A stretch of DNA of 64,000 nucleotides from an uncultured Acidobacteriota bacterium (GTDB taxonomy: Bacteria; Acidobacteriota; Blastocatellia; RBC074). The notes below the pieces were generated by a model, which was given only the letters and a program-made list of their open reading frames with translations, was not told the DNA's origin and searched no databases. The position numbers and the translations under genes were made by a program. Below, in pieces: positions 1 to 45,400 of this stretch. Location: contig CAWCKY010000007.1 in assembly GCA_963796275.1 (NCBI GenBank), forward strand, positions 1,007,383 through 1,071,382, given 5' to 3'. Numbering within the stretch: position 1 is the stretch's first letter; each line of letters opens with the position of its first letter.

Positions 1-5
1 AAGAG

Positions 6-1371
6 TTGCTGGAATCCGAAACGAAGCTGCAACAGGCAGCCTCCCAGACCGATGAAGCCGAGCAGTCGCGAGCCGATGCTGAAAAGGTCGTCGAAGTCGC
101 TCAGGCGGAGATCGCTGAACTTCGCCGGGATGCCGAGCAACGCTTACAGGAACTATCGCGGCGCCGCGCTGAATTTGCCGCGAAAACCGAGCGCCGTAGA
201 GGCGTCCAGAACGACATCCGCAGGCTCGAGTCCGAGGCGAACGATCTGGAAAATCGATTGGCGCGTTCGCGCATGGAGGCCGTCGAGGCTGACGATCAAA
301 CGAACGCGATACAGTCGTCTATTCACAACATGGCCGAGCAGATGCAGAAGCTGATGGCTGATCAGCAGCTCCAGGCCGCAGAGCTGGAACAGCGCGGCGC
401 GGCTTTGGCCGCGGCTCGCGAAAGCCTCGAATCGATCGATCTCGCCTTGCGCTCCGCCCGCGAGGCTGCAACTCAATCCCGCGAGGAGCGCGCGCAGAGG
501 GAGATCGAGATGACTCGCTTGTCCAGCAATCTCGAGCACCTCATGCATTCCTGCCAGATGGAATTGGGCGAGAATATCGCCGAGGTATCTGAACGACTGG
601 AAGCAGGTACTGACGAGCAGATGCCCGAGACGGCTCAATTCCCTGCCGGCGATGCAGATCAGGAAGACCAGGAAGATGTGGGAGAGATATCGGTCTCTTT
701 CTGGAACGTTCCGGAAGACTTCAACCTCGAGGAAGCAAAGGCGCGGCTTGATGAGTTGCGTTCAAAGATCGATGGACTGGGACCAGTCAATATGATGGCT
801 CTCGAGGAACTGACTGAGGTCGAAGAGCGCTACCTTTTCCTCATCACACAAAAAGAGGACATAGAGAAAGCGATTTCCGACACACAAGCTGCCATTGCGG
901 AGATCAAACGCCGGTCGCGGGAAAAATTTGTGGAGGCCTTCCACGCGATCAATGAGTACTTCAAACGAATGTTTGAGGAACTATTCGGCGGCGGGCATGG
1001 CGAGATGCGACTGATCGACGAGACCGATGTCCTCGAAAGCGGGATCGAGATAATCGCGCAGCCGCCCGGGAAGCGGCTGCAGAATGTCCTTCTGCTATCC
1101 GGCGGAGAAAAAGCGATGGCCGCGCTCTCACTGGTGATGGCGATTTTCAAGTATCGCCCTAGCCCGTTCTGCCTGCTCGATGAGGTCGATGCGCCACTCG
1201 ATGACATGAATATTGGGCGGTTCGCCGACAAGATACTCGAGATGAGCACAAATACTCAGTTTATGGTCATCACCCACAGCAAGAGGACTATGGAAGCGGC
1301 GAAGGTTCTTTATGGCGTAACGATGGAAGATACCTGGTGTGTCAAAACTGATATCGGTAAAGTTGACTTGA
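6..1371 (+). CDS. smc: Chromosome segregation protein SMC, C-terminal part (coiled coil + C-terminal ATPase half); 5' end lies outside the window
   Basis: GPVNMMALEE, LLSGGEKAM signature, FCLLDEVDAPLD Walker B/D-loop, VITH. An extra A at ~1332 shifts the conserved end MED-PGVSKLISVKLT*, whose true stop TGA is at 1369-1371. The ORF track reads through to 1478. Confidence 0.95.
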
Positions 1372-2638
1372 GGTCGATCTTGTTTGAGAAGGAAGATCGA
1401 TCTTCTACCACGTTCTCCAGAATCAGGACCTTGTACAGCAGCCTGCCGAATTCCTTAGCGACGATCGAACGCAGGTGAACGCCGCGCAGCAGCTCGGCTC
1501 CCGGTTTCGCCGGTATACGGCCGATCAGATGCTTCCGATACCTGAGCCGGACGCTCTCCGGCCGATTCTCGTCGAGTAATCTTTCAGCAGCCTCCAACCC
1601 ATCGTATAGGTCTATTTCAACTTCGCCCCTTCCCGCATTCGCCTTTGTCGATCCGCGCGCCTGAAATCCACTCAACTCCTGTTTCGTCTTCAATTCGCTG
1701 GCCACACCGACCCAATAAAAATAATCGAGCACGATGTCTACCAACGATCGCCAGCGATATCGCCGGCGCGCCAGTTTTAGCAATCTCAGATGCAGACGGA
1801 GGATGAAGACGATGGTACGGGCGGCTCTGGGGCTCTGGAATACTAAGGGCCGCAGGATGCGCGTCAGATTTGAGAAAGGCAGGTTGTAATGGATCAAGGG
1901 GAGTGCGGGGATAATTTCGGGGTGGCGGATGCCGAGCAGGACGTCCCCTCTTCCCTCGTCCTGTTTACGCCTGAATGAGCCATTGAGGTCACGGCATTCG
2001 TAATGGTCGGCCATAGCATCGGCGGCGAATATTAACTCGGCGCCCGCTTTGATGAGGCGCACGCCCAATTCGTAATCTTCATGCGCGTGGCTTGCGGAGA
2101 ATCCTGTGTCAAATCCGCCGGTGCTTGCAAAGAGTTCGGCCCGGATTGAGAAGTTGCCGCTCAGAAAGTCGCGAAATGTGAAGCGATGGCCCTGTTCGCA
2201 CATACGATAGAACATGCCCATCCACCATCTCCGCAGCTCTATCCAATATAAATCAGTGTGATCAGGGATAACCGGACGTGAGTATCCAACCACAACTCGA
2301 TCCGGTTTCTGAAGACGCTCGTGAGCTCTTATGAAACCGGGCGCGGGCACGATATCGTCATCGATGAAGATGAGCAGTCGGCCTTCAGCTCCGGCTGCTC
2401 CAAAGTTGCGTGCGTCGGCCGCCCCCCTCCCAGGCACCTCAAAAACTTTCATCTTGAATGGAGCTGTGTAGTCCTGAGCCATAGCGATGGTATCATCGAT
2501 ACAACGGTCAGCCGCTACAATAACTTCCAGCTGATGCATCGGATAGTCTTGAGAGCATAAGGCGTCGAGCGTGCGCTTCAAGGCATCGCTCCGGTTATGG
2601 GTGGGAATGATGATGCTGATTTTTGGACTGTGTGTCAT
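1310..2638 (-). CDS. Glycosyltransferase family 2 protein
   Basis: ISIIIPTHNR, AARNFG-like, LIFIDDD (DxD), GGFD, HEDYELGVRL motifs. Confidence 0.9.
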   Translation of the reverse strand: MTHSPKISIIIPTHNRSDALKRTLDALCSQDYPMHQLEVIVAADRCIDDTIAMAQDYTAPFKMKVFEVPGRGAADARNFGAAGAEGRLLIFIDDDIVPAPGFIRAHERLQKPDRVVVGYSRPVIPDHTDLYWIELRRWWMGMFYRMCEQGHRFTFRDFLSGNFSIRAELFASTGGFDTGFSASHAHEDYELGVRLIKAGAELIFAADAMADHYECRDLNGSFRRKQDEGRGDVLLGIRHPEIIPALPLIHYNLPFSNLTRILRPLVFQSPRAARTIVFILRLHLRLLKLARRRYRWRSLVDIVLDYFYWVGVASELKTKQELSGFQARGSTKANAGRGEVEIDLYDGLEAAERLLDENRPESVRLRYRKHLIGRIPAKPGAELLRGVHLRSIVAKEFGRLLYKVLILENVVEDRSSFSNKIDLKSTLPISVLTHQVSSIVTP

Positions 2639-2657
2639 AAGAATATAGAGGAAATCG

Positions 2658-3866
2658 TTATTTCCTCCGCCTTTCTTCTCTCGAGCGGCGGATCCGCGAT
2701 ATGAAATAAGCCCATGGACCGAAGAGACAACCGCGCAACTCGGCCAGAATCAGATCGGGCGGCAATCCCCCGGGGCGTCCCAGCAGCGAGCGAATGAGGG
2801 TCGCAAGCTGTTGGTGGCGAAACCATGCCCACGGCCCCTTCATCACATCTATTTCACCCTCGCGCATTATGCTGCGCGTCCAGGCTGCATATGCTCCGAC
2901 TCCGTATCCGTAATATGTTCTGCGCAGTTCTTCCAAGGTTCGGCGGTGGCGATGCCAGCTCAGGGCGGCAGGTTCGTATACGATACGAAACCCCCGGCCA
3001 AGGATGCGCGCAATGTATTCGGTGTCTCCTCCCGAACAGGTCAGTGTCCCGGCGTCTAGCGCCTCGTCAAAGTCCCCGATATGCTCCAGCGCGCTTCGCC
3101 GCAGCGACATATTGGCTCCGGCGCCTGCTCGGCCTGCCTCCCACGGGCAAAGATTGCAATTGTCAAAAACCACTCGCTTGAATCCTCGACCGAATGGGCT
3201 GTAGCGCTCGAATATTTCCTGAGCCTCGGTCTCCAACTCGAGCGGCATGGTCAAACCGGTAACGCACATCACCATGGGATCGTCGAAATTCCTGAGATGC
3301 GCTCTGAGCCAATACCGATCAGGGGAGGCGTCGTCATCGCAGAAGACAACGATTTCACCGTTGGCTTCGCGCAGCGCTCGGTTGCGAGCGATGTTCAGAC
3401 CCGGGCGCTCCTCGTAGATGTAGCGTATCCGCCTGTGTAACTTCACCAGATCGAATGTATCGGTAGTGGAGGGACAGTTATCGATGATGAGTATCTCCTG
3501 CTGGTCATCCGGAAGCTCGCGGATAGCTTGAATGCATCGTCGCAGATCCTCTGTACGATCGCGCGTGCAAATTGCAATGGTTGATGTGCTCGACGGCTTG
3601 TCATCCAACGATGGCAGTTCATCCCATCCCAAATAATCTTTTATCCAGTTATCCCACAGATGCTGTTCGGAGACGGTTCTGAGGACCGCGCTATGGAGCA
3701 TCACGGGGTCCAGGTGGCCGTCGATGACCGGCAACGTGAATTTGTCTATCGGTTGCCGGCGCCAGCGAATCAGAATGAGAGCCTTGTCGTAATTGTCGAG
3801 CCCGTTGATCTCATAAGGTAGCTGCTGAAGATCAAAGTCTAAAACCGCAGTGGCCATATGATCCAC
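2658..3866 (-). CDS. Glycosyltransferase family 2 protein with N-terminal extension (start may be the ATG at 3857)
   Basis: IAICTRDR, IIDNCP, ARNRAL, VFCDDD, GAGANM, GGDTE motifs. Confidence 0.9.
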   Translation of the reverse strand: MDHMATAVLDFDLQQLPYEINGLDNYDKALILIRWRRQPIDKFTLPVIDGHLDPVMLHSAVLRTVSEQHLWDNWIKDYLGWDELPSLDDKPSSTSTIAICTRDRTEDLRRCIQAIRELPDDQQEILIIDNCPSTTDTFDLVKLHRRIRYIYEERPGLNIARNRALREANGEIVVFCDDDASPDRYWLRAHLRNFDDPMVMCVTGLTMPLELETEAQEIFERYSPFGRGFKRVVFDNCNLCPWEAGRAGAGANMSLRRSALEHIGDFDEALDAGTLTCSGGDTEYIARILGRGFRIVYEPAALSWHRHRRTLEELRRTYYGYGVGAYAAWTRSIMREGEIDVMKGPWAWFRHQQLATLIRSLLGRPGGLPPDLILAELRGCLFGPWAYFISRIRRSREERRRK

Positions 3867-3960
3867 TTCTCTGCCCTTCAGAGGAGATGGAGGTTATGTT
3901 TGGAATGGAGTTGGATTCTCGATCCGGTTGGGGTTATATTCTAGCTGAAAATCCTCCAAT

Positions 3961-4908
3961 ATGAAATTTTCAATGATCGAGAGGCGAGAAAATCCATATA
4001 ATTCCGCATTGGTATCGATTGTAATCCCCTGTTATAAGCAAGGGCATTTTCTAGCCGAATCGATCGAGAGCATCCTCTCGCAGACATACCAGAACTACGA
4101 AATCATAGTCATCGACGACGGCTCTCCGGACAATACCGCGCAAGTCGCATCACGCTATGCCGAGGTGAGGGTCATACGCCAGGAGAACCAAGGCCTTTCT
4201 GCCGCGCGCAATAAAGGAATCAGTGAGAGTCATGGGGAGTTTCTGGTCTGTCTGGACGCGGATGATCGTCTGTTGCCGGGAGCGCTTGAATCGGGTTTGG
4301 TCTGTATGGCACGGAGCCCTGAATCGGAATTCGTCTTTGGCCGCTACCGGGGGATCAAAATAGATGGTGCACCGACAGGTGTAATTTCGAAATTGAGCGA
4401 CGAGAACATCTATTTGGGGCTTCTGGCCAGAAACTGTATTGGCCCTTTGGCCCCGGTGATGTTCCGTCGACGCGTCTTCGACAAAGTAGGAGGGTTCGAT
4501 ACGAGCATAAATTCTGCATCGGACTATGACATATATCTGCGGATATCGAGCAGCTTTCCTACTCACAGATATGATGAAATTGTTGCCGAATACCGCGTAT
4601 ATGATTCGAGTATGTCCGCGGATATGGGATTGATGCTGCGTTCTGTCATCATTTCATTGCGATTGCAACAAAGATACGTGAAGGGTGAAGTTGAGCGCGA
4701 ACGAGCATATAAGATGGGTTTGAAGTTCTGGCGGGAATTATATGGCGAGCCTCTTTATAATCAAACATCGAGAAGACTGCGGGATATCGGGAACTGGAGA
4801 CGAACAATCCGCGATTTGTGCTATCTGATTCGTTATTATCCACAATCGATCACACTGCACGGTTCCAGTAGAATCTCAAAACTAATTGCCCACCTGAAGG
4901 GAGCTTGA
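3961..4908 (+). CDS. Glycosyltransferase family 2 protein
   Basis: VSIVIPCY, VIDDGSPD, GLSAARNKG, LDADD, GGFD, SDYD motifs. Confidence 0.92.
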   Translation: MKFSMIERRENPYNSALVSIVIPCYKQGHFLAESIESILSQTYQNYEIIVIDDGSPDNTAQVASRYAEVRVIRQENQGLSAARNKGISESHGEFLVCLDADDRLLPGALESGLVCMARSPESEFVFGRYRGIKIDGAPTGVISKLSDENIYLGLLARNCIGPLAPVMFRRRVFDKVGGFDTSINSASDYDIYLRISSSFPTHRYDEIVAEYRVYDSSMSADMGLMLRSVIISLRLQQRYVKGEVERERAYKMGLKFWRELYGEPLYNQTSRRLRDIGNWRRTIRDLCYLIRYYPQSITLHGSSRISKLIAHLKGA

Positions 4909-4944
4909 CAGATTTACGGCTGGTTCATATAGTGGGACAACTTT

Positions 4945-4986
4945 TGGGAGGTCGTCTAAGGTAAGACTGCGGACTCTGGATCCGCC
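4945..4986 (+). pseudogene. 5' half of a tRNA-Gln(CTG), truncated just after the anticodon stem (putative att junction)
   Basis: TGGGAGG-TC-GTCTAAGGTAAGAC-T-GCGGA-CTCTGGA-TCCGC gives the acceptor 5' strand, D arm and a CTG anticodon arm. No T arm or CCTCCCA 3' strand follows. Confidence 0.85.
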
Positions 4987-5081
4987 TGATAAGGCCGCAG
5001 GCATGGCTGCAAGTTGAATTTGAAGGACTTACAGGTGTAGTGGTGATAACGACAACTCAAATAGAGTGCATTCTGTGTGTA

Positions 5082-5123
5082 AGTGATGTAGGAGTGATGT
5101 AGGATGTGTGCAAATGATGTAGA
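5082..5123 (+). repeat. Three short direct repeats (AGTGATGTAGG x2, ATGATGTAGA) resembling tyrosine-integrase arm-type sites
   Basis: Repeats seen directly, about 100 bp from the broken tRNA. The function is inferred. Confidence 0.55.
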
Positions 5124-5157
5124 ATGCCGCAGTAATTTTGAGTGGGATTTTTGATAT

Positions 5158-5230
5158 TCCGGGATGGTGTAATTGGCAACACGCTCGGCTCTGAACCGAG
5201 AGAGTCTAGGTTCGACCCCTAGTCCCGGAG
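5158..5230 (+). tRNA. tRNA-Gln(CTG), intact, CCA not encoded
   Basis: Acceptor TCCGGGA/TCCCGGA+G, D arm GTGT..ACAC, anticodon arm CTCGG-CTCTGAA-CCGAG, T arm CTAGG-TTCGACC-CCTAG. Confidence 0.93.
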
Positions 5231-5235
5231 CTGAT

Positions 5236-5284
5236 AAAAAGAGGCGCTTTGGTAAATTAACTACCTGAGCGCCTCTTTTGTTTT
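5236..5284. terminator. Intrinsic terminator, probably bidirectional
   Basis: AAAAGAGGCGCT...AGCGCCTCTTTT inverted repeat with A/T tails, between the tRNA and a convergent ORF. Confidence 0.8.
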
Positions 5285-5302
5285 AGTGACTGCCATCGTG
5301 TT

Positions 5303-5581
5303 CTACTCTGTGATGCTGTCGGCACTGGAAAGTGCTTTTCCAGAACTCCTCTTTAGCCCCCAACTCTTCTTCAGCCTGCTGACCTTTGCAAGCATATCTG
5401 TAGCAGAAATAACAAATGGATCGAGATATTGAATCCGTTTCTTTTCACGCTCCCGCTCTCTTTCGGCGAGTTGTTCGTACTCCAAACGTTTGATTTGAGA
5501 ACGCGTTGTGATCAATGCGGTTACAAGAGCCACCGATGCAGCTATTCCGGCAGATATAACAACTCCAACCGATTGTTCCAT
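5303..5581 (-). CDS. Small hypothetical protein with N-terminal TM helix and coiled coil; cassette-like, probably 3'-truncated
   Basis: Hydrophobic N-terminus followed by an E/R-rich helix. Starts ~30 nt after the attC core site GTTATGC. Confidence 0.55.
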   Translation of the reverse strand: MEQSVGVVISAGIAASVALVTALITTRSQIKRLEYEQLAEREREREKKRIQYLDPFVISATDMLAKVSRLKKSWGLKRSSGKALSSADSITE

Positions 5582-5611
5582 TGGACGGTATCCTATAGTG
5601 GATGTTTTGCA

Positions 5612-5672
5612 GCATAACGGTTCGCGTCAGCGGCGCCCGCAAGCGGGCTTCTGCTGCACGCGAATGTTTGGC
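5612..5672 (-). other. Integron-type attC recombination site (61 bp)
   Basis: Minus strand reads GCCAAAC (R'') ... TTCGCGT-G-CAGC ... GCTG-ACGCGAA ... GTTATGC (R'). It is an imperfect palindrome with one unpaired base in the L box and an inner GCCCGC/GCGGGC stem, 5 nt after a stop codon. Confidence 0.78.
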
Positions 5673-5677
5673 AAAGA

Positions 5678-5875
5678 CTACTCAACTGTCTGGAACCAGT
5701 TACAATTAGGGGATGTTTGCCAACGTGTCCAGATTGCGTTGTCGGTGCCCCGAGCGAAGACGTTAATCGGATAGCGCCGAGCCAGCCGATTGACCCACGT
5801 CTCAACATTGCTGGCTGATGTCCCAACTCCTGCCGGACCACCCCCACGAGAAATTGAAGTCTGCGACCACCATCT
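5678..5875 (-). pseudogene. 3' fragment of a PLL-like / Trp-rich beta-propeller lectin repeat gene (cassette remnant)
   Basis: Translates INVFARGTDNAIWTRWQTSPNCNWFQTVE*, ending just before attC. Confidence 0.55.
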
Positions 5876-5877
5876 GA

Positions 5878-6351
5878 TTACAACAAACGAATCACCGTGA
5901 AGCCTTCGGCTTCCGCGGCATCCGAGAGATTTCCATCAGCGCCAATGAAATGGCGTCCGCGCGGTCGGTCAGAACACCAAATCAATGCCGCAGCCAATTG
6001 AAGCGCATCCGCGGCCCGTAGTTTATGTCTCCCCAACAGTCGCTCCGCCTTCTCTCGCACTTCTTCCGACGGTTGGACTTCATTCCAGCGACGGCGCAGG
6101 TGATCCAGCCGAGCGCAGGCCTGTTTGCCGTCTCGGCCTGTGATATAACCTTCACGAATCAGCCGATTGAAAGAACTGATCGCTTCGATCGGGGCTGCCC
6201 ACCAAACTACTTGCCGAGCATAAAGGCGAGCAGCTTGTCTAGCCTGCGTAGTTTGCGACTGAAAACAACACAAAGGTGTAATCCCGCTCGTATCCCAGAA
6301 AGCCGTTAGAATGGCCACAGAAGCAGATTGTCGTTTCTTTTTAGTCTTCAT
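5878..6351 (-). CDS. vapC: PIN-domain toxin (VapC family)
   Basis: AFWDTSG, E helix, LRAADALQLAAA, FIGADGNL PIN motifs. Overlaps the upstream antitoxin; exact start uncertain. Confidence 0.88.
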   Translation of the reverse strand: MKTKKKRQSASVAILTAFWDTSGITPLCCFQSQTTQARQAARLYARQVVWWAAPIEAISSFNRLIREGYITGRDGKQACARLDHLRRRWNEVQPSEEVREKAERLLGRHKLRAADALQLAAALIWCSDRPRGRHFIGADGNLSDAAEAEGFTVIRLL

Positions 6352-6628
6352 CGCGCTCTTGTTCTATGGTCCGGTGTAGAGCTTCAGATGAGATGCGCGG
6401 TGCAGGCAAGTCCCAGAATGATTCATCGAGTTCCCCTTCACCAAGGCGCAACTTTCCTTGTGCTGCCAATGCGAGCAGCTCTGCGTCTTGATCATGAACG
6501 AGTTGCAGAGGCACGATGCGAGCAATAGGCAGATTGCGATCACGGACCAAGATTTCCTCTCCGGCCCTGACCTCATTGAGATACCAACTCAGGCGATTTT
6601 TGAGTTCAGCAATGTTTACGCTCTTCAT
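6341..6628 (-). CDS. Phd/YefM (prevent-host-death) antitoxin
   Basis: MKSVNIAELKNRLSWYLNEVRAGEEILVRDRNLPIARIVP is a canonical Phd N-terminus. The true start is the ATG at 6628. Confidence 0.9.
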   Translation of the reverse strand: MKSVNIAELKNRLSWYLNEVRAGEEILVRDRNLPIARIVPLQLVHDQDAELLALAAQGKLRLGEGELDESFWDLPAPRISSEALHRTIEQERDED

Positions 6629-7122
6629 CAGAAACCTCAAAAGGATACCCCATCCATAGCAGCCATCCTGGGCGGCTTGGATGGGGAGGAATTTTGAGAT
6701 CGTGCGCTAGCACAATTAATTCCATAGCCATCAGCCTTATGAATCACCCGGCAGTATCGATGGCTGATCCCCTGGATCAGGCCCGCAGCGCCAGAGGTTT
6801 TTTGTTTTTATCGATGACTGCTACTTGCATTGTGAGAATGGCCCTTTCGAGCCGCTGGCATTGCTGCCGTTAAGTTAGCCTCGACAATGATGTCTGAGCT
6901 TCTTAGTTCAACGCACTGGCGATTACCCGTAACCGCTGTTTAACGCTAAACGACAGTGGCCACGAACTGGCTATCGCATCCGTGGGTGTCTCGGTTTAAA
7001 CCTAACTCAAACATCGTAGCTGCAAGCCTTTTGCCCCCAGCTTAGTCTGGTCAACCGGGCTCATCGGTTACCCGACAAGCCCCCACTATAGTTGCAAAGC
7101 AACTTAGTGGCGGGTGAGTGAC
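6629..7122 (-). mobile_element. Non-autonomous, internally deleted IS200/IS605 IscB (OMEGA) element, 494 bp
   Basis: Left end GTCACTCACCC and omegaRNA, then the iscB start MQVAVIDKNKKPLA (PLMP domain) joined directly to the C-terminal IQGISHRYCRVIHKADGYG. A right-end hairpin CCCCATCC...GGATGGGG is followed by ATGA. Confidence 0.85.
6835..7122 (-). ncRNA. omegaRNA / HEARO-type RNA
   Basis: Conserved blocks in order directly upstream of the iscB ATG (6830): GTCA..CACCC, GTTGACCAGACT, CTACG, ACACC..GGATGC, CCAGT..CTGT, CATTGTCGAGGC. Confidence 0.82.
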
Positions 7123-9729: not shown

Positions 9730-10010
9730 ATGGGGTTGTGGCAACAACTCCGTTTTCTAACCGCACGACCCGTGACGATTGTCACGGCAACCTTAAATCA
9801 GCTGTCGGCGATCTCCAAGCCGCAACGCAAATTCGTCGCCGCGCTGTTGGCCACGATTCTGGCCCTGAGTGAGCGCTTCAATTATCGTAATCTGGCGCGT
9901 TACGGTAGCTATTCAGAGCGCACTCTGGTATGCCAACTACAAATACATTGACGTTGTTCTCAGGGGCGGCTTCCACGTGGTTTCCAAATTGAGATCAGAC
10001 GCCAATTCAT
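9730..10010 (+). pseudogene. DDE transposase remnant (IS4/IS701-like)
   Basis: KPQRKF...RFNYRNLARYGSYSERT and GFHVVSKLRSDAN in different frames, with a large internal deletion. Confidence 0.6.
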
Positions 10011-12043: not shown

Positions 12044-13040
12044 TTATTTGGCCTTCGGCCATAGCAGATGGCCCGTTATATTCAGGCGGATGCGAAACAG
12101 CGTCTTTCCCGCCGTGATGTAGAGTGTTTTCAAGTCCGGATCGCCGAATGTGCAGTTGGTTACCATATCTTCCGGGACGGGAATTACGCCGATCTGCCTC
12201 CCTGCGGGAGAAAATATGTAGACGCCTGCCTTGGCCAGCCCGCTCTCCGATGGAGGATTCGGCGTATTGAGCCCGGCGGTCACATAGAGATTCCCACGGC
12301 TGTCGAGACACATCCCATCACCGCCGCGACTCACACCAAAGTCGTGAATGACACGGCGTTTGCCTGTTGAGCCATCGGCGCTCAATTCATAAGCAATGAC
12401 TTGGCGCGAGCCACCCGCCAGGTTGTTGTTGTCTATCACATAGAGCGTCTTCTGATCAGGGGAGACAGCGATCCCGTTCGGACGTTCTAGGTCATCGATC
12501 ACCCGGTTTATCTTTCCATCCGGATCAATGCGGTAAACCGCTTCCTTATCCATCTCCATTCCCGACCTATCGCCATAGCGTGGGTCGGTGAAGTAGAGCC
12601 GGCCCTGAGCATCCACATCAATATCATTGGGGCTGTTGAATGGCTTGCCCTGGTACGAGGCTGCCAACACGGTGAGACTGCCGTTATGCTCCGTTCGCGT
12701 AACTCTGCGGCTACCTCCTTCGCAAGCCACGAGTCGCCCTTCGAGATCGAAGACCAATCCGTTGGCGCGACCTGAAGGCTGGCGATAGACCTCAATCAGT
12801 CGACGGGGGACGGGGTCCGGGCCCGGCGCCGAGCGCATAATTCGATTATTGCTGACATCGGTAAAATAGACGCTGCCATCCGCGTGATACACCGGCCCTT
12901 CCGTGAAGGCTACTGTTGAAACCACCTCAAGTTTCGGCTTCTGTTGGCAAGACAGGAACCTGTGCCTGAATGCCAGCTGACAGTATCATCAGAAATAGAG
13001 TCGTTATCGATCTTTGGATTCGCTGAATCAAATTATCCAT
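12044..13040 (-). CDS. SMP-30/gluconolactonase family protein, secreted; frameshift at ~12940 between the signal peptide and the propeller
   Basis: FTEGP, ANGL, FNSPND, YFTDP, PNGIAVSPD, GDGM, TNCTFG. Upstream frame MDNLIQR...LFLMILSAGIQAQ. Confidence 0.88.
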
Positions 13041-13541: not shown

Positions 13542-13762
13542 TTATATTTGGTCAGTCCGCCTGGCTGATGAGACCGACATCACCAAAACATTTCTCCCCA
13601 TACTTGGCGTCATACGATTGCGACTGAACTCCTCGACGCTGGTGCGCCGCTCTCCAAAGTATCCAACCTTCTTGGGCACAGCGACACGAAGATCACAGCA
13701 AAAACTTACTACTCGGACCCTGAGGGCCTGAACGTCGAAGATTACATCGAGAAGGATAACTG
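13542..13762 (+). pseudogene. Tyrosine recombinase C-terminal fragment
   Basis: Plus frame not in the ORF track: ISPHTWRHTIATELLDAGAPLSKVSNLLGHSDTKIT (HxxR, LLGH). Confidence 0.8.
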
Positions 13763-17347: not shown

Positions 17348-17878
17348 TTAAGGAATCTTTAACGTGAGGTAAAACGGCCACAGGCCGAGCACAAACCGAA
17401 CAATAAGGTTACGCCGCGGCTCATTATAGATTCCCACGCCGATGCTCAGAACTTTGATTTGCTCTTTTGGGATTTTGTAGGCGTGTACTGCTGCATCTGC
17501 GATGGCAAACAGAGTGGGGTTGTTGGCCACGAAACCGCCATCAATCACCTCTTGTCTTCTCTGGTTCACCGTATCAACGTGCTGTCTTTTGAAGAATGGA
17601 AAAGCCGCAGTGGATGCCATTAGAGCATCGGTAATCGTGCAGCCGAAACCAGGGACAAACGTGCTCTTAAGGCCATGCGCCTGTGCCACTGAGGATTTGA
17701 AAATCATCGGTTTTTCAAGCACCAGGCTTGTTGCTACAATTCCGATATTGGTCTTGAATTCATCGAATTTTTTATCTTTCAAGACTGCTCCTGCGTTTCT
17801 CCTGAGGGCCTGACTCCTTCCATGTGCTGACTTGTGCCCCATCACATCGGAAATCAGTTTGAAGTATATGCTGGTCAT
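17348..17878 (-). pseudogene. Patatin-like phospholipase fragment (N-terminal GxSxG half missing)
   Basis: ASTAAFPFF, DGGFVANNP, VLSIGVG. Confidence 0.75.
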
Positions 17879-21411: not shown

Positions 21412-21610
21412 TTATCTCTTCAAACGTCTGGCGATCTCCTTACCGAACTTGTCGCGCCTGACGGCGATCCGTTGCACGTATACGCGCGTCGTCGCCGCGT
21501 GCTTGTGGCCGAGCGCCTCCTGTGTCTCGCTCAAGCTGCCGCTGCCCTCCGCCACCATGCGCGCGAAGGAATGGCGCAATTGATGCAAAATGGATGTCGC
21601 CGATCTTCGG
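21412..21610 (-). pseudogene. Tyrosine recombinase C-terminal fragment
   Basis: Minus frame: LHQLRHSFARMVAEGSGSLSETQEALGHKHAATTRVYVQR...LKR*. Confidence 0.8.
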
Positions 21611-21649
21611 GTTCGAGAACGATTCGCCTAAAAATTCTCCACTTCTCTA

Positions 21650-22560
21650 ATCTCGAAGAGATCCATATGGAGTGGGAAGCTTACGACGGTTCCGGGGCTC
21701 GCCATCGACATATCGCCCGAATTCGCGAATATCTCGGGGTGAAGAAGTTCGATGAAACAGCGCACTCGATTTTATCGGCGACTGTGCGCCAAGCCGCACT
21801 GTTACGCGAAGATCTCGTTGATATCATCAATATTGTTATTGAGGAGCTTGTGCGTCGCCGTTACGAGTTGCCGCCTTTCCCCACCCTGCAGGCGTAATCG
21901 CAAAGAGCACGGACGGCGACCAATCGCGAATTTTTCGAGCGAGTCTCTCAATCCTTGGGAATAGATCGATGCCAGACAATCGATCGGTTGGCCGAAGTGG
22001 ATGGGGTCGAGAGAAGATCATTATGGCAATCATTGAAAGCGGATCCGGGCGCGCCGACACTCAAACAAATACGTGGGTGGGTGAAGCGGCTTTCCTGGCT
22101 CAAGTCTTTGGATATGCATTCGGCAAAATTCTTTGCCGGCGTTCCCGCCGTCAGAATGCAATCATTTGCTTTGGAAGCCCGCAGTTTGAACGCCGCGCGA
22201 ATGCTCGAAATGGAATCGCACAAGCGTTATACGTTGGCGGCGGCATTGGTGTCCCGACAGATTGCGCAATGTCTCGACGATCTTGGGGAGATGCTGATCA
22301 GAAGGTTCGTAAGATGCACCGCCAGGCGCATGAAGAATTTCAGCAGGCGTTGCTCGAGCGACAGACGCAGACCGATCAACTCATCAGCGCCTTTTCCAGG
22401 TCCTCTCGGTTTGGGTGGAGGGGACCTCCGTTAACCAAAAGCATACGGCTTTGGAATCGATTCTCAATCACCAGGCCGAGTCATTGATCGAGCTTTGCCG
22501 TCTGCATGAAGCCCTGACCAGGCACAACTATCTCGGTTTTTTGTGGAAGAACTATCTGAC
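21650..22560 (+). pseudogene. tnpA: Tn3-family transposase N-terminal remnant (DUF4158 region)
   Basis: RHRHIARIREYLG, DIINIVIEELVRRRYELPPFPTL, FALEARSLNAA, KRYTLAAAL, DDLGEM; multiple frameshifts. Confidence 0.75.
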
Positions 22561-23065
22561 ATTGGGGAAAGCGATCGTCATCCTCGACCCGGCGTCCGCA
22601 CAGGCGATTCCCGACGAGCTTCTCACGCTCGTGGATTACATCACTCCCAACGAGACAGATCTCGCGATGCTGAATGGTGTCACACGCGAGGGCAGTCTCG
22701 ATTGCAATGATGCTTCGCAGATGGCTCGCCGATCGTTATCACGAGGCGCGAAGCGAGTGATCGTCAAATTGGGGTCACAGGGCGCTCTGCTGGTAGGAGA
22801 AGACTACGAGCACTTTTGGCCGGCCGTGTCAGTCGTAGCGGTCGATACGGCAGCTGCCGGAGACGCGTTCAACGCCGCTTTAGCCGTCGCCTTGGCCGCC
22901 GGGAAATCTGAGATCGAGGCGGGAGAGTTTGCCGCAGTGGCAGCGGCATATTCAGTCACGCGCAAAGGCGCGCAGCCGAGCATGCCGACCTTGCAGGAGA
23001 TTGAGAATCTGCTTCGGAAAGAATCACTACAAAAATCACAAACGGAACAAAAGGCGCAAAGTTGA
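22560..23065 (+). pseudogene. Ribokinase (PfkB) C-terminal fragment fused to the transposase remnant
   Basis: ILDPAS, ITPNETD, VIVKLGSQGA, DTAAAGDAF, GAQPSMP. Confidence 0.8.
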
Positions 23066-25757: not shown

Positions 25758-27059
25758 TCATGGCAAAAAGAGCATGGCGGCGGCCTCTGGATTTGAAGCG
25801 AAGTAGCAGTGAAGGTAACTCGCGGTCAGTCGCTCCAGTTGATAAATTCCTTCCCCTGGCGAGGTCTTGAACAAACGCTCACCGGATGCAATCGGGGAGA
25901 GCGGCGTATCGATCACGGAATGGTGAAAGGTGTGACTGCGCAAGGCACCGCCTGGCATCAACGCCGTTTGATAACCCAAGCCTTGGAGCCGCGATTTCAT
26001 GGCAGCACTCCCCGGCAACAGGCCGACCATCTCGCCGCGCGCTCCGGCCTGGTCGCTCAGCGACTCGAGCAGATAGAGCATCCCCCCGCATTCCGCATAG
26101 ATCGGTTTGCCGGCTCGAAAGTGATCTTGCAGCGCGGCCTTCAATGCTACGTTCTCCTGCAATTGCTGCAGATGCAACTCCGGATAGCCTCCCGGCAGGT
26201 AAAGACTGTCGACCGCCGGCAACTGTCGATCGATGAGCGGCGAAAAGAAGACCAGTTCGGCGCCCATCCCTCGCAATATATCCAGGTTGGCCGGATAGAT
26301 AAAAGAGAACGCCGGATCACGAGCGACACCGATCCGAATGCCACCCAGTAGCGGCGGTGCCGGCTCGGGAGCGGAGCAAATGAATTCGACGGCCTCCGGC
26401 AAAGCGGCCAGAGCGGTCGAGCCAATTGAAGCAGCGGCGGCCGACAACCGGGGTTCGAGATCGTTCACTTCCGCAGCCTGAACCAGACCCAGATGCCGCG
26501 ACGGCATAGCAAACTGAGTCGAACGCGGCAATCCGCCAAGATAACGAATGTCCGCGGGCACGCCCTTCGCGATCATTTCGGCATGGCGCGGACTCGCAAT
26601 CGAATTGGCCACTACACCGGCGAACGGCAGTTCGGAACGATAGTTGGCAAGTCCGAGCGCGATCGCGCCCAGAGTTTGCGCGGTGCCGCCTGCATCGATC
26701 ACTGCCAGCACTGGCACTCCCAGTTTTTCGGCCAGATCGGCGCTGCATGGATCGCCGTCGTAGAGGCCCATGACGCCCTCGATCAGAATCAGGTCCGCCT
26801 CTTGCGTGGCGTCATAGACCTGGCGCCGGCATTCGGCCTCGCCCGCCAGCCAGAGGTCGAGTTGGTAGACCGGCCTGCCGCAGGCACGCTCCAGGATCAT
26901 GGGATCGAGAAAATCCGGGCCGGTCTTGAAGACTCTGACCTTGCGGCTTCGATCGGCGTGGAAGCGAGCGAGCGCGGCCGTCACGGTCGTTTTACCATGA
27001 TCGGAACCGGGAGCGCTGATGAAGAGCGCCGGGCAGCGTCGCGTTGGTAGGTTTTGCAT
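25758..27059 (-). CDS. cbiA: Cobyrinate a,c-diamide synthase
   Basis: SDHGKTT, KTGPDFLDP, IEGVMGLYD, SRHLGL, AFSFIYP, LPGGYPE, AECGG. Confidence 0.95.
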   Translation of the reverse strand: MQNLPTRRCPALFISAPGSDHGKTTVTAALARFHADRSRKVRVFKTGPDFLDPMILERACGRPVYQLDLWLAGEAECRRQVYDATQEADLILIEGVMGLYDGDPCSADLAEKLGVPVLAVIDAGGTAQTLGAIALGLANYRSELPFAGVVANSIASPRHAEMIAKGVPADIRYLGGLPRSTQFAMPSRHLGLVQAAEVNDLEPRLSAAAASIGSTALAALPEAVEFICSAPEPAPPLLGGIRIGVARDPAFSFIYPANLDILRGMGAELVFFSPLIDRQLPAVDSLYLPGGYPELHLQQLQENVALKAALQDHFRAGKPIYAECGGMLYLLESLSDQAGARGEMVGLLPGSAAMKSRLQGLGYQTALMPGGALRSHTFHHSVIDTPLSPIASGERLFKTSPGEGIYQLERLTASYLHCYFASNPEAAAMLFLP

Positions 27060-36238: not shown

Positions 36239-36397
36239 ATGAGCTTAGACATCCGAGCCGCGTGGCACCGAATTCCCGGCCGACAATCGCATCTGAAGCG
36301 GGAAATTTAGAGTGGAGTGATTGCTGAAAAGCTGGAAAATAGAGACCCGAACCCAAGCCGCACTCTTAATCCCCGAAGAGTTCATCTGCACGACCGA

Positions 36398-36615
36398 ACT
36401 TCAGGTAGGTCTCCTGACTTAAGCCCCCGAAGTCGAAAGCAATTGAATGCTGGCGGCTTCTCTTTTCCTCGTCGCCTTCCCACGCGCTCGCGCAGTGGCA
36501 TAAAGTAGGAGAGGAAAAGTATCAAAGGGCCTTCACAGTGGCGGGACCGTGCGGGAGTTTCACCCGCTTCCCTATTCTCCCGTTACCATAGAAACGGCAA
36601 CAGGCACCTGAAGCC
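36398..36615 (-). promoter_or_regulatory. Cobalamin riboswitch upstream of cobA
   Basis: AGGTG...AATAGGGAA.CGGGTGAAACTCCCGCACGGTCCCGCCACTGT...GCCACTG..GGGAAGGC...AAGTCAGGAGACCT (B12 box). Confidence 0.93.
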
Positions 36616-36714
36616 AAAACTGTTAGATCAAAGCGTTGTTGAATATATGCCAGGGGATATTAATAACGCAAATTCAATCTCGCAATCGATCAAGACCGTC
36701 CATCTGGACCTCGT

Positions 36715-40768: not shown

Positions 40769-40809
40769 CGATAAAACCTCCTCTTTTTCCCATCGAAAGT
40801 CGGTGAGGC

Positions 40810-41000
40810 CAGTGCTCAAAATCGGTCTCCTGACTTGCGGTTTTCCGTCGATGACCGGTCGAAGATCGATCACCGACATCCCTTCCTCCGCGCCTTCCCG
40901 TTGGTGACGAACAGTGGCTGAATGCGGAGTCAGTCGCCGTTACAGTTGCGTGGGCAGTGGCGGATTTACACCGCGCTTCCCGTTCACTTTCAGCACTCGG
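40810..41000 (-). promoter_or_regulatory. Cobalamin riboswitch, proximal of the tandem pair
   Basis: AACGGGAAGCGCGGTGTAAATCCGCCACTGCCCACGCAACTGTAA...GCCACTG...GGGAAGGC...AAGTCAGGAGACC. Confidence 0.9.
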
Positions 41001-41226
41001 TGGTTAATGGTGAACCGGAGCCGGCTCCGGCATGAATGGTTCGGCGGCAGTTCCTCCTGAATCCGGTTTCGTTATTCAGGCCACGGGCGCTGCCGCTCGG
41101 GTTTTGAAGATCGGATGTGGATGAACTGAAATTTGGAGAGTGGAATGAGATATATACCGGCGGGAACACTTGAGTTGACACCAAAGCCGCACTCTCAATC
41201 CACGAAGAGTCCATCGATACCGACCG

Positions 41227-41435
41227 AACTTCAGGCAGGTCTCCTGACTTAAGCCTCGACGTCGATAACGAACGACGTCTCTTTTCCTTGGAAGCCTTCC
41301 CACGCTCTTGCGCAGTGGCAGAAAGTAGGCAAGGAAAAGAATCGAAGGCTTTCACAGTGGCGGGACCGTGCGGGAGTTTCACCCGCTTCCCTATTCTCCT
41401 GCTACCTGAGAAAAGGCAACAGGCACCTGAAGCCA
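41227..41435 (-). promoter_or_regulatory. Cobalamin riboswitch, distal of the tandem pair; near-copy of the cobA riboswitch
   Basis: Same core as 36398-36615, with an identical TTCACAGTGGCGGGACCGTGCGGGAGTTTCACCCGCTTCCCTATTCTCC block on the + strand. Confidence 0.92.
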
Positions 41436-41859
41436 AAACTGTTCTATCAAGACGTCGCCTAATATACACCGAACTATGTGTGAAAGAAATACTGAGGTAA
41501 TAGGGGTGTCGAGCCGGATCGGGGCAAAGCCAGTTCACTATATCTCGACAATCACGGTTTTTTCCTCGCACGGCGACGCGGAGACGATATCAGAGGGAGA
41601 CTAATCGATCAGGGGCATCTGCTGTTCATCATTGAAGGGAAGATCAAGTTTCAGTTGGGAGATAGTTCCAAGTTCTTAGCGAAACGTGGAAAGTGATGCG
41701 TGATATTGCTCCTTGTAACCGCAATGCGAATGTGTGCAGTACCTGTGATCGAGCCTAACCCACGTTGGATCCGAGCCGCGCGGAGCTAGCCTCTCATAAA
41801 CTTTTCGTGGCGGGATCTGATGAGCTTCTGCCTGCGTAGGATATGCACTTATGGAAGCA

Positions 41860-42495: not shown

Positions 42496-45400
42496 TTATT
42501 CAGCATTGACACAAATACGGCGACAGTCTTCCTCAATTGGCTCTGTCAATACATTGGATTGGAGAACTAAGCTAAACCAAGTAGCTAATGCCTGAATATA
42601 TGGCGGTCTGAGAGCGCTCATATGATTACCGGGACCATGCCAAAAGGAGAGATTAGGCGCCCAGCGCCTCCATCCTGCGACGCGCTGTCCGTGTTGATTC
42701 CAGTTGGTTTCTTCATCGAGTTTCGGATCATCCAGGAGCACCAACCGAACGAGCTCTGGGTAAACCTTATCGGGCTGGTAATGAGTGCGCAAGCAAGCAG
42801 CGAAGGTACGCAATGGACCACCTAGGATTTCAGGCTCTGAGCGCCGGGGCAGAAGGCCAATCGCCACTAGACGCTCATGAATAAGCTCCCCTTGTGCCGC
42901 GGCATCGCAAGACTCGAGATCGCTTGAGGTGATTTCGAGCTGGCATCCGGCAACCTGCTCGTAAATTTCGATCAACTTCATGACCACTTCGGTGCGATTG
43001 TATTCCCGGACGAAAGTGTCATCAGTATCCGGGGCCTCGCTATCAAGAATGGTAAGCGACGCAATAACGCGTCCGGCTGCGCGCATCCGTTGGGCCATCT
43101 CGAATACTACCCAACCACCAAAAGAATGCCCCAATAGATGCACCGGACCTTGGGGATGTATCTCGTTGACCGTTTGCAGATATAATTTTGCGGCAGCGGA
43201 AACAGTCGAATGAGGAACAAGCACGCCGTCCAATCCACGCGGTTGAAGTCCGTAAATCAGCTGTATCTTATCCAGAGAGTGAGCCAATTGTGCAAAGCTG
43301 GACACACTATCACCAGCGCCAGGCACACAGAAGAGTGCTGTATCACTGCGTCGCTCGGTATGAAGCGTTACAAGGGGTGAATAGCTTCGCTCTTTCAAAC
43401 TTTGACTTTCCTCGCTCGCATTGCGGATGGCGTCTGATAGAGCTCTACCAAGTAGTTCGATGTTTGGGGGTTTCACCATTGATTGGTGGGTTCCTGGCAC
43501 TGGTATCACGCGGATTTGCTCCGTGGGCAAAACCGCGTCCCAGTGCCGCAGAGGATTGGCAATCTCCTCGCACTGTGCAGTAAAGAGATAGATTGGAATT
43601 GGAATTGGTTGCGCAATATACTGCAAATTTGCCAGATAGAACATTCGCTCACGACTCAAATAGTGAGCGACCTCCTCGGTCGTAAACCCCATGATATGTC
43701 GAGGTAATATCGACATATCATGGCACTTTCTCACTAAGGTCCCGAAATCCACCTCTAGCTCTAAGCACTTCAGTTCCTCGATCCTCGATTGCAAGCTCTC
43801 ATTTGAGCCCGATTCGAGATAGAGCCTGTGGAAAAGCCAATTCTTATCGTCTAGTGCTTGCTCGGGCATGAAAGCATCAGCGCAATATCCATAGTTCGTA
43901 TCGAAGAGTCCAAGGAACTGAACTATCTGATCCTCGCCAATGAGTTGCGTGGCGATTTCATAGGCTAGTGTCCCCCCAAAAGACCAACCGGCAATAAAGT
44001 AAGGCCCAATTGGCTGGACGGCACGGATCATTCGCACCATGCGCGCCGCCATTCCCTCAATAGTACGAAACTGAGCTTCGGCCAGTGGCTTCGGTGGCAA
44101 CCCATAAATGGGGATATCTGCATCTATATAGGGCGTGAGCTTAAGTGCGTACAGCAGCAAACCAGCACCCTCATGAATCAAGAATAGAGGTGGGCTCCCA
44201 CTTCCTGCTCGTATAGGTATCGCCATGTAATCCCAGGTCCCGCCGTCTTGCTGCAAGATTTGCTGTGCAAGAGACTCAATCGTCGGATGCATTAACACAT
44301 CCGCTATAGAAATGCAGATACCTATGCGCTTGAGAGAACTTACCAATTGCAAGGTAAGCAACGAATGCCCCCCGAGTTCGAAGAAGTTGTCGTGCCGGCC
44401 GATCCTCTCCACCTTCAGCACCTCCGACCAGATGCCCGCCAGCACACTCTCCATCTCGCCTTTGGGCGCAACATATCCGCGCACGGCATAGGCATCTGCT
44501 TCCGGTGCCGGCAGGGCCTTGCGGTCCAGCTTCCCATTCGGCGTCAGCGGCAACGACTCCAGCCGCACATACGCTGCCGGCACCATATAGTCAGGCAGGT
44601 TTGCCGCCAGATACGTCCGCAAGACCTCCGCGCCTACTGTGTCTTCACCCATTTCCGCACCGGTGTAGTAGGCCACGAGCCGTTGATCCCCAGGACTCTC
44701 CTCCCTGGCTACCACCACCCCCTCTCGTATCCCCGGGTGCCTTTCCAACTGTGCCTCGATCTCTCCCAGTTCGATCCGGAACCCTCGCACCTTCACCTGG
44801 TAGTCGTTGCGGCCCGCGAACTCAATCGTTCCATCCGGCAGCCATCTTCCAAGATCGCCGGTCCTATACATCCGACCTCCGCCCTCTCCAGCGAAGGGAT
44901 CAGCCACGAATCTCTCCGCCGTCAACTCCGGCCGGTTCAGATAGCCCAGCGCTACTCCCGCTCCTCCGATGTACAGTTCTCCCATCACTCCTATCGGCGC
45001 CGGCTCTCCATCGACATTCAAAATATAGATCCGTGTGTTGGTGATCGGACGACCTATTGGAATACTCCGCTCATCTCTCCTTATCTCACTGATTTCGTAG
45101 GTGGTAGCGAAAGTCGTCGTTTCGGTCGGTCCATACCCGTTGATCAGGTGTTTCGGCGGATTGCTGAGCAACACCCGCGCAATCACCTTCGGATCGACCA
45201 CATCTCCTCCGATAATCATGTAACGCAGGTTGACAATATCTTCGCTCAATTCGTCCGCATACTGATTGAATAATCCAACGGTCAACCATAAAACATTGAC
45301 CCCTTGCCGCCTCAGCATTTCCCTGAACCGTCGGGGCTCAAGCAATACCGCCTGCTCGATAACCACGATGCGGCCCCCATTGAGCAACGGCGCCCACACC

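Follow-up and report, generated by a model that had tools for sequence, protein, structure and literature searches.

Probable relic of a tRNA-dependent integration at the tRNA-Gln(CTG) gene of a Blastocatellia (Acidobacteriota) genome

Introduction

In canonical integration into transfer RNA (tRNA) genes, the crossover takes place in the anticodon loop and the integrating element carries the 3′ part of the gene. A different arrangement, tRNA-dependent lysogeny, has been described for actinobacteriophages such as Fionnbharth, LeBron and Gaia (Guerrero-Bustamante and Hatfull, mBio 2024, PMC10865867). According to the parts of that report on which we draw, cores of 8–17 bp (its Table 2) do not rebuild tRNA-Lys, tRNA-Ile2 and tRNA-Leu, and a phage-encoded tRNA that shares their anticodon is required, whereas close relatives with related integrases rebuild the tRNA at the same site (Boilgate compared with Fionnbharth); in these same parts, its authors asked how common tRNA-dependent lysogeny is beyond actinobacteriophages. 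Prophage Lj965 of Lactobacillus johnsonii and Lo5R7ANS-like rhizobial prophages have likewise been reported as not rebuilding the target tRNA and encoding a cognate tRNA, as discussed in passages of PMC10865867 and PMC12429752. Here, we describe a locus in a Blastocatellia genome, G000, where the 5′ half of a tRNA-Gln(CTG) gene downstream of smc is followed by a complete tRNA-Gln(CTG) of different sequence. It lies in a 64-kb stretch of DNA, called the window throughout, to which all positions without a contig name refer.

We consider it likely that positions 4945–5287 are the left attachment site (attL) relic of a tyrosine-integrase element that broke the native tRNA-Gln(CTG) gene and brought its own. 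A first-pass annotation of the window had suggested that the tRNA of the host was destroyed by an element which also provided a substitute; the suggestion is now supported by the identification of the native gene (type A below), by a recurrent breakpoint, by an integrase gene on a metagenome contig, L056, and by the foreign sequence of the second tRNA.

The locus resembles the actinobacteriophage cases, as far as the parts of the source drawn on here describe them, in that a tyrosine-integrase element (an integrase gene adjoins the homologous cassette on L056) would have made a break inside a tRNA gene that is not rebuilt at the junction, and in that the tRNA of the element agrees with the broken one in isotype and anticodon (the window has type B; L056 and G077, a genome of another genus, have type C). 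The relation of Boilgate to Fionnbharth also has a parallel: at the same site and with related integrases, the tRNA is rebuilt in genome G060 and is not rebuilt in the window, in G077 and on L056. The host, in contrast, belongs to the Blastocatellia (Acidobacteriota) and not to the Actinobacteria, and its phylum also differs from those of the hosts of Lj965 and the Lo5R7ANS-like prophages. Here, 150–170 nucleotides (nt) separate the crossover from the tRNA gene, which has the core on one side and int on the other, points the same way as the broken gene and is downstream of the promoter of that gene, whereas the Fionnbharth tRNA, in the part of the report devoted to it, lies elsewhere, overlaps gene 37 and has its own demonstrated promoter (PMC10865867). 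Finally, the window appears to hold a fossil end state, with the element gone and the tRNA fixed, which is known here from sequence alone and does not imply that the element was a phage. The evidence supports a fossilised case of tRNA-dependent integration in a phylum new for it.

The 5′ half of the native tRNA-Gln(CTG) gene

In the G000 assembly (9.46 Mb, seven contigs, 54% G+C, 94.7% complete), the window makes up the final 64 kb of contig C7. Below, other G numbers stand for genomes of relatives and L numbers for loci or contigs. Tallies for the family cover 87 genomes including G000, i.e., 86 others, and the class-wide integrase tally covers 401 genomes; the unpublished genomes G004, G296 and G373 are counted in tallies only (searches for smc, integrases, the L056 flank and the native tRNA) and are used in no specific claim. 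The features of the locus are as follows.

3–1478, plus strand: 3′ part of smc (Pfam SMC_N, E 2.3e-28), the anchor of the locus
4905–4933, plus strand: native tRNA promoter, intact, TTGACA–17 nt–TATAGT, 11 of 12 consensus positions
4945–4988, plus strand: relic of the native tRNA-Gln(CTG), with the acceptor 5′ strand, the D arm, the whole anticodon stem-loop (CTG) and 2 nt of the variable loop; proposed as the core side of attL
4989–5157, plus strand: spacer, apparently element-derived, with blocks 4989–5014, 5066–5084 and 5146–5155 common to G077 and L056
5074–5091, 5085–5102 and 5105–5122: three direct repeats, private to the window
5158–5230, plus strand: complete tRNA-Gln(CTG), type B (Rfam tRNA, 63.5 bits; ARAGORN 5158–5231)
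5237–5287, plus strand: terminator hairpin with 18-nt arms and a 7-nt loop, then a T run, homologous to the terminators of G077 and L056

The stump at 4945–4988 is 96–98% identical to full tRNA-Gln(CTG) genes of relatives. The alignment of every relative to the window ends at 4987/4988, two bases into the variable loop, with unrelated sequence beyond, which bears out the earlier observation that the 5′ half ends right after the anticodon stem. The D loop of the stump has one base fewer than that of the native gene, and neither ARAGORN nor Rfam called a tRNA at 4945–5000. The promoter in front of it is the only promoter-like plus-strand site in 4600–5700, and native genes of relatives have the same upstream promoter layout.

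The native gene, which we call type A (the TGGGAGG-type), was searched for in the 87 family genomes using the full native gene of a relative as the query. It was found at full length and at least 90% identity in 62 of the 86 other genomes and at 85–88% in six more. The query gave a 5′-only match in G077, as it did in G000, and a 3′-only match in G079, while weak matches in G057, G059 and G076 were to tRNA-Gln genes within arrays. The remaining 13 genomes, which include G019 and both other genomes of the window's genus (G001 and G002), had no match. Homologues of smc are present in 78 of the 86 genomes. In 24 of the 86, from six genera, coordinate comparison puts a native tRNA-Gln(CTG) downstream of smc at a distance of no more than 400 nt; eight of these loci were inspected directly. 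Since this arrangement occurs in 24 genomes of six genera, we take smc followed by a type A tRNA-Gln(CTG) to be the ancestral layout, and on this distribution regard the type of the stump as the native tRNA-Gln(CTG) of the family. The first-pass annotation had named a 5158-type tRNA native to this locus in relatives as evidence to the contrary: G001 has a related tRNA there, but one with only 78% identity and flanks that cannot be aligned, while type A stands at this place in six other genera.

The spacer, the second tRNA and the terminator

Three short direct repeats had been noted in the first-pass annotation between the stump and the full tRNA, and they are indeed found at 5074–5122; the middle of the spacer is not conserved relative to G077 and L056. 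Its other observation, a complete and very different tRNA with the same anticodon and its own terminator, agrees with the ARAGORN and Rfam calls at 5158–5230 and with the hairpin at 5237–5287. ARAGORN found no other tRNA gene in the whole window.

The type B tRNA has a U1–A72 pair and discriminator G73, the same as the native genes. Its identity to type A is 63–66% (identity matrix) and to the type C genes of G077 and L056 60%; it is 78% identical to the type-B genes of G001 and G019, 74% to a tRNA of a 635-kb uncultured phage, and 80–84% to tRNA-Gln genes that lie in long tRNA arrays in other families of the class. The arrays around these genes comprise 34 genes in G033, 24 in G029 and 12 each in the examined stretches of G037 and G030, and the acceptor stem and D arm of the window's tRNA are identical to those of two of the array tRNA-Gln genes. 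Judged by these identities, the 5158-type tRNA is foreign.

Long tRNA arrays (L-arrays) are, in the parts of the report drawn on here, described as spread by horizontal transfer (Santamaria-Gomez et al., NAR 2021, PMC8421152). The window's tRNA is like them in its high identity to tRNA-Gln genes from 12–34-gene arrays of the same class, and unlike them in being a single gene in an integration cassette. As a separate observation, long tRNA arrays are found in several genomes of the class, with 34 genes within 4.9 kb in G033 (L102, C53:6540–11440) and 24 in G029 (L099, C3), and further ones in G037, G030, G071, G059, G057 and G076 (L100, L101, L015 and L111–L113). Since a passage of PMC8421152 lists the Acidobacteria among phyla whose arrays fit simple accretion, such long arrays may be unreported for the phylum.

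The native promoter is positioned such that it would read through the stump and the spacer into the type B tRNA; a candidate −10 hexamer, TAGAAT, lies in the spacer at 5120–5125. Over 5129–5282 and 5131–5266, the window is matched exactly by two contigs that stem from the RNA libraries of a single soil study. Their starts at 5129/5131 are a lead only, since contigs cannot show RNA ends and DNA may be present in such libraries. Contigs of the same soil runs that differ from the window by 5–10% cover 5019–5151, 5019–5305 and 5059–5160, and therefore related cassettes exist in other soils. No soil-run contig lay over 4700–4915 or past 5320, and none linked stump to spacer; they are silent on the junction.

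One may ask whether the stump and the spacer are not a scar but a functional leader or small RNA that acts in the processing or regulation of the downstream tRNA. Conservation of spacer blocks between genera would fit this idea, as would a strong native promoter that would transcribe through them. However, the stump is already one D-loop base short, the middle of the spacer is unconserved and only the window has the three repeats, and we therefore consider a function of this kind very improbable.

Recurrence of the junction in G077 and on metagenome contig L056

In G077, a native promoter and a native 5′ part lie behind smc, and the latter ends at the breakpoint of the window within 2 nt. The stump is followed in G077 and on L056 by the junction block (window 4989–5014), a 19-nt block (5066–5084) and, just before the tRNA, a 10-nt block (5146–5155), and then by a complete tRNA-Gln(CTG) of type C and a terminator homologous to 5237–5287, where the homology of the window to this cassette stops. 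Conservation of the spacer is judged from three sequences, two of which are near-identical. Only nt 1–44 of the native tRNA remain at the putative attL in the window, in G077 and on L056.

Contig L056 (3,375 nt) was retrieved using the terminator as a pattern in a single metagenome scan, which returned two contigs, L056 and L057. It carries the same stump, likewise ending within 2 nt of the window's breakpoint, and the same spacer, type-C tRNA and terminator, and an intact open reading frame (ORF) of 452 amino acids converges on the cassette terminator; its product matches Pfam Phage_integrase (E 3.6e-16) and has the usual C-terminal motif. Besides the cassette, L056 contains int and small ORFs and nothing more. 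In G077 and L057, about 20 codons are missing from the end of the integrase ORF, which was possibly cut by an insertion sequence, to which a weak HTH_21 match (E 0.003, below the cut-off) points.

Two scans of about 185,000 species genomes (window's genome excluded) with junction patterns retrieved the G077 contig and four records titled as other taxa, and two scans of viral contigs with such patterns retrieved nothing. Close relatives of the L056 integrase were limited to the G077 fragment in genome contigs and absent from viral contigs. No attP (the attachment site of the element) or attR (the right junction) of an L056-type element was found in genome, viral or metagenome scans, and no attR was seen in the window, G077 or L056.

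The recurrence of the junction bears on the possibility that the contig is chimeric or misassembled at 4988, the artefact named as a caveat by the first-pass annotation. No sequencing run with the whole stretch was found, the best run sharing a fraction of 0.16 of the sampled words. The same junction is, however, carried by three independent assemblies, and contigs of other soil runs cover 5019–5305, which makes an artefact extremely improbable.

A 151-nt contig from a soil RNA library (run X1) matches 4942–4982 and has the native 5′ part including the D-loop base that the window lacks. Past the equivalent of 4982, its sequence (depth 2) is unlike both the native tRNA and the window's spacer. 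This may point to a further junction without rebuilding, or the contig may be chimeric.

Canonical integration at the same tRNA gene

With E 1e-25 or better as the threshold, 127 of the 401 genomes of the class have a homologue of the L056 integrase. Among the best 30 of these loci, 14 have a tRNA gene: Phe in six, and Gln(CTG), Met, Thr and Lys in two each. In G060, an integrase with 47% identity to that of L056 converges on an intact native tRNA-Gln(CTG) just behind smc, with a terminator between the integrase and the 3′ side of the tRNA. At a distance of 21 kb, a second integrase (50% identity) is found next to a partial tRNA repeat, and a third repeat lies 9 kb further; both partial repeats span the anticodon loop to the 3′ end. 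By this arrangement, G060 is the ordinary form, with crossover in the anticodon loop, the 3′ part supplied by the element and the tRNA rebuilt.

Locus L114 (G079:C348, 3010–3356, viewed on the minus strand) holds the C-terminus of an integrase with 74% identity to the L056 integrase over 39 amino acids. It is co-directional with a part of the native tRNA (anticodon loop to 3′ end) and is located upstream of this part at a distance of about 180 nt. Next come a terminator and a 7-nt motif that is repeated, an order also seen in G060. The locus looks like a junction of tandem elements with the integrase at the opposite end.

The cassette locus (the window, with L056 for the integrase) shares with these canonical cases (G060 and G079) the target gene and the position in it, a related integrase clade (47–50% identity), an integrase converging on the 3′ side of the tRNA and a terminator between the two. 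It is unlike them in that the window, G077 and L056 have a spacer and a whole tRNA gene in place of the 28-nt 3′ part, and the native gene is not restored. Restoration by an element-borne 3′ part is thus found in G060 and not in the window, where similarity ends at 4988. The core would be at most about 14–16 nt if it starts at the anticodon loop, a bound taken from the crossover position in the canonical kin, compared with the 8–17 bp of the actinobacteriophage cores.

An alternative that these repeats address is mirror-image rebuilding, in which attP carried the whole 5′ half and a complete native tRNA was rebuilt at attR, later to be deleted with the distal island; the element's own tRNA would be a spare or would compensate for a rebuilt copy without a promoter. 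It draws on L056, where the 5′ part is complete from nt 1 and preceded by 65 nt that hold no TTGACA/TATAAT-type promoter, while all smc-linked native genes have one; moreover, this left flank gave no significant match in the 87 family genomes, so it could be element DNA. However, the element-borne repeats in G060 and G079 start at the anticodon loop and never take in the 5′ half, and there is no rebuilt copy in G000 or G077. Some native copies also have no consensus promoter (as in G023, below), and L056 may be an attL in another host. Since a same-anticodon tRNA in the arm would, in addition, be hard to explain if the native gene survives, we consider such rebuilding unlikely.

Relatives with a type-B gene were compared as well. 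G001, of the same genus and the closest relative of G000, has a type-B-like tRNA behind smc with flanks that cannot be aligned and no stump. A hidden stump in the leader of this gene was looked for and rejected: local alignments were no better than those of shuffled sequences, 71, 86 and 287 of 300 shuffles reaching the score. In G019, a type-B gene lies between conserved chromosomal genes, and both G001 and G019 hold type B only. These two genomes, together with debris resembling insertion sequences and integrases near the cassette, could suggest that no site-specific event occurred, the foreign tRNA having come otherwise and the then redundant native gene having lost its 3′ half by deletion or by rearrangement through an insertion sequence. 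Random deletion would, however, not repeat the breakpoint and the homologous sequence in a second genus and on an integrase-bearing metagenome contig, and the border of the anticodon stem-loop, at which the break falls, is also the place of the crossover in the canonical relatives. Spread by homologous recombination is disfavoured, since the flanks of the window, G077 and L056 beyond the cassette differ. An origin without site-specific integration is thus quite improbable.

At another locus, L110 (G023:C20), two complete tRNA-Gln(CTG) genes of native type lie at 3090–3163 and 12824–12897 (minus strand), 9.7 kb apart. In the copy whose sequence was examined, the CCA end is encoded and the upstream region lacks a consensus promoter. 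The pair may reflect another kind of element at this tRNA.

The only tRNA-Gln(CTG) gene of the assembly

Genome-wide ARAGORN analysis, a check proposed in the first-pass annotation, showed that 5158–5230 is the sole Gln(CTG) gene among 47 tRNA genes in the seven contigs of G000, and an intact TGGGAGG-type copy, which was looked for as evidence to the contrary, was not found in the assembly. A single tRNA-Gln(TTG) gene of native-like sequence is also present. 'Only copy' means the only copy assembled, because the assembly is 94.7% complete, and at least tRNA-Arg(TCT) and one CAT tRNA are absent, CAT tRNAs numbering only two. G000 also has three tRNA-Cys(GCA) genes and a tRNA-SeC; the oddities of its tRNA set are probably in part due to assembly gaps.

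Regular-expression and blastn-short searches did not find the orphan 3′ half of type A anywhere in the assembly. Matches of 18 nt (C4:293868) and 15 nt (C7:995516) to it lie inside ORFs and were judged to be due to chance. A 14-mer of the anticodon arm has four copies in the genome, all of which belong to one repeated element unrelated to tRNA. This repeat (more than 130 nt alike; C4:521944, C3:1675671, C1:103246 and C1:1317426) is probably a multicopy gene or an insertion sequence.

In a mechanical count that took in 2,765 long open frames and was limited to their last 300 codons, CAG accounted for 20,927 of 31,150 glutamine codons (67%).

Proposed course of events

According to the scenario that we favour, an element would have inserted itself into the native tRNA-Gln(CTG) gene downstream of smc, with the anticodon arm as its target. 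The anticodon stem-loop would have been kept because it is, as we propose, the core site of the integrase, and since similarity stops after the anticodon stem, the native gene would be left as a promoter with a 44-nt 5′ stump. The rest of the 3′ patch would have been replaced in this lineage of elements, so that integration kills the native gene, and the element's own tRNA-Gln(CTG), 170 nt on, in the same orientation and with its own terminator, would take over. The intact form would be as on L056, with the integrase gene converging on the cassette terminator. In G000, the integrase and the far end would later have been lost or overwritten, leaving about 300 nt of the element, which presumably are what the cell cannot afford to lose: the foreign tRNA may have been retained because, of the two glutamine codons, CAG is used more often and a second tRNA with a CUG anticodon is not present. 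The tRNA may in this way anchor its end of the island while the remainder decays, as the first-pass annotation had proposed. We thus infer, for the ancestor of G000, a site-specific integration at a short common core, complementation and later decay.

Several points weigh against this scenario. The event is reconstructed from other genomes, as G000 itself lacks an integrase of the L056 clade, an attR and a tRNA 3′ half, and a missing tRNA could hide in the gaps of an incomplete assembly (94.7%). Since attP and attR are unseen, L056 could be an attP-like site with a whole 5′ half. The cassette frame is common to the window and G077/L056 and the tRNA body is not, so an extra swap event is needed. 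Lastly, G001 has no stump, which means that replacement does not always leave this signature.

A broader idea, which we put forward tentatively as possible rather than probable, is that a lineage of integrative elements that target tRNA-Gln(CTG) in Blastocatellia turned the 3′ tRNA patch into a plug-in cassette consisting of a core, a spacer, a whole tRNA and a terminator. The strong promoter of the broken gene would read into such a cassette, and different tRNA bodies could be accommodated in it (array-type in the window, type C in G077 and L056).

The surroundings of the cassette

Further features of the window considered here are as follows.

1310–4908: three family-2 glycosyltransferase genes (Pfam Glycos_transf_2; E 3e-24, 4e-20 and 3e-35)
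5288–25700: lower-GC stretch behind the cassette (GC profile), with intact cargo-like genes and broken mobile genes
5878–6640, minus strand: Phd/YefM antitoxin and PIN-like toxin pair (PhdYeFM_antitox, E 1.5e-8; PIN, E 9.6e-4, below the curated cut-off)
6869–7122, minus strand: HEARO RNA (Rfam RF02033, 117 bits)
9730–9951 (plus strand), 17348–17878 (minus strand) and 22415–23065 (plus strand): short or truncated genes of the low-GC stretch, namely one transposase-like ORF, patatin and PfkB
13572–13760, plus strand: C-terminal fragment of a tyrosine integrase, 63 amino acids (50% identity over 40 amino acids to an integrase beside tRNA-Gln(CTG) in G205)
21415–21627, minus strand: C-terminal fragment of a second tyrosine integrase, 71 amino acids

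The glycosyltransferase genes separate smc from the tRNA promoter in the window; locus comparison showed that they are not there in relatives in which smc and the tRNA are adjacent. The roughly 20 kb of mobile debris that the first-pass annotation had seen behind the cassette is partly that: integrase fragments, truncated genes (a patatin C-terminal part and the C-terminal half of a PfkB kinase) and low GC content fit the description, and several genes look intact (MFS, gluconolactonase-like, M48, MacB-type and GGT, all within 5.3–25.7 kb). One short ORF has a start that we take to resemble the N-terminus of an IS4/IS701-type transposase; it has no Pfam match. The two integrase fragments are too short to place, and the catalytic-motif region alone cannot assign a clade.

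Using the L056 integrase as the query, tblastn gave nothing significant in the window. There is no integrase relic right behind the terminator, where the ORFs at 5303–5581 and 5593–5847 have no Pfam match, and no phage structural gene was found among the ORFs of 1–27 kb scanned with Pfam. No att repeat was seen at the right border; synteny downstream of the tRNA is not kept between genera, and the same-genus contigs end too early.

Downstream of the HEARO RNA, its strand carries no HNH/IscB-type ORF; the Phd/PIN pair comes next. Three cobalamin riboswitches lie within 5 kb, at 36387–36626, 40803–41006 and 41217–41445 (minus strand), two of them about 210 nt apart, in a GC-rich block that starts with a CobB/CobQ-like gene (25758–27056). 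From 44000 to 64000, up to the end of the contig, GC skew is −0.2 to −0.38 at about 60% GC; this region may consist of one or more very long minus-strand genes.

Discussion

Our comparison brings together, from nothing but genome and metagenome sequences, canonical and tRNA-breaking forms of one integrase clade at the same smc-linked tRNA gene in an Acidobacteriota class. The window would show the long-term outcome of the second form, in which the element is gone and host translation appears to rely on a horizontally acquired tRNA, and it provides evidence for the replacement of a core tRNA gene. That the cassette directly follows the crossover, with the host promoter upstream of it, suggests integration-dependent expression of the tRNA; if confirmed, this detail would be new. 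Annotators can use the presence of a 5′ tRNA stump beside a tRNA with the same anticodon as a signature of such events.

Should the tentative cassette idea be true, the cassette would free the element from having to match the acceptor stem of each host. Decay would then leave the element tRNA as the only one with a CUG anticodon, which would offer a concrete path for the turnover seen in the family between types A, B and C, and tRNAs of arrays could in this way enter the core translation set.

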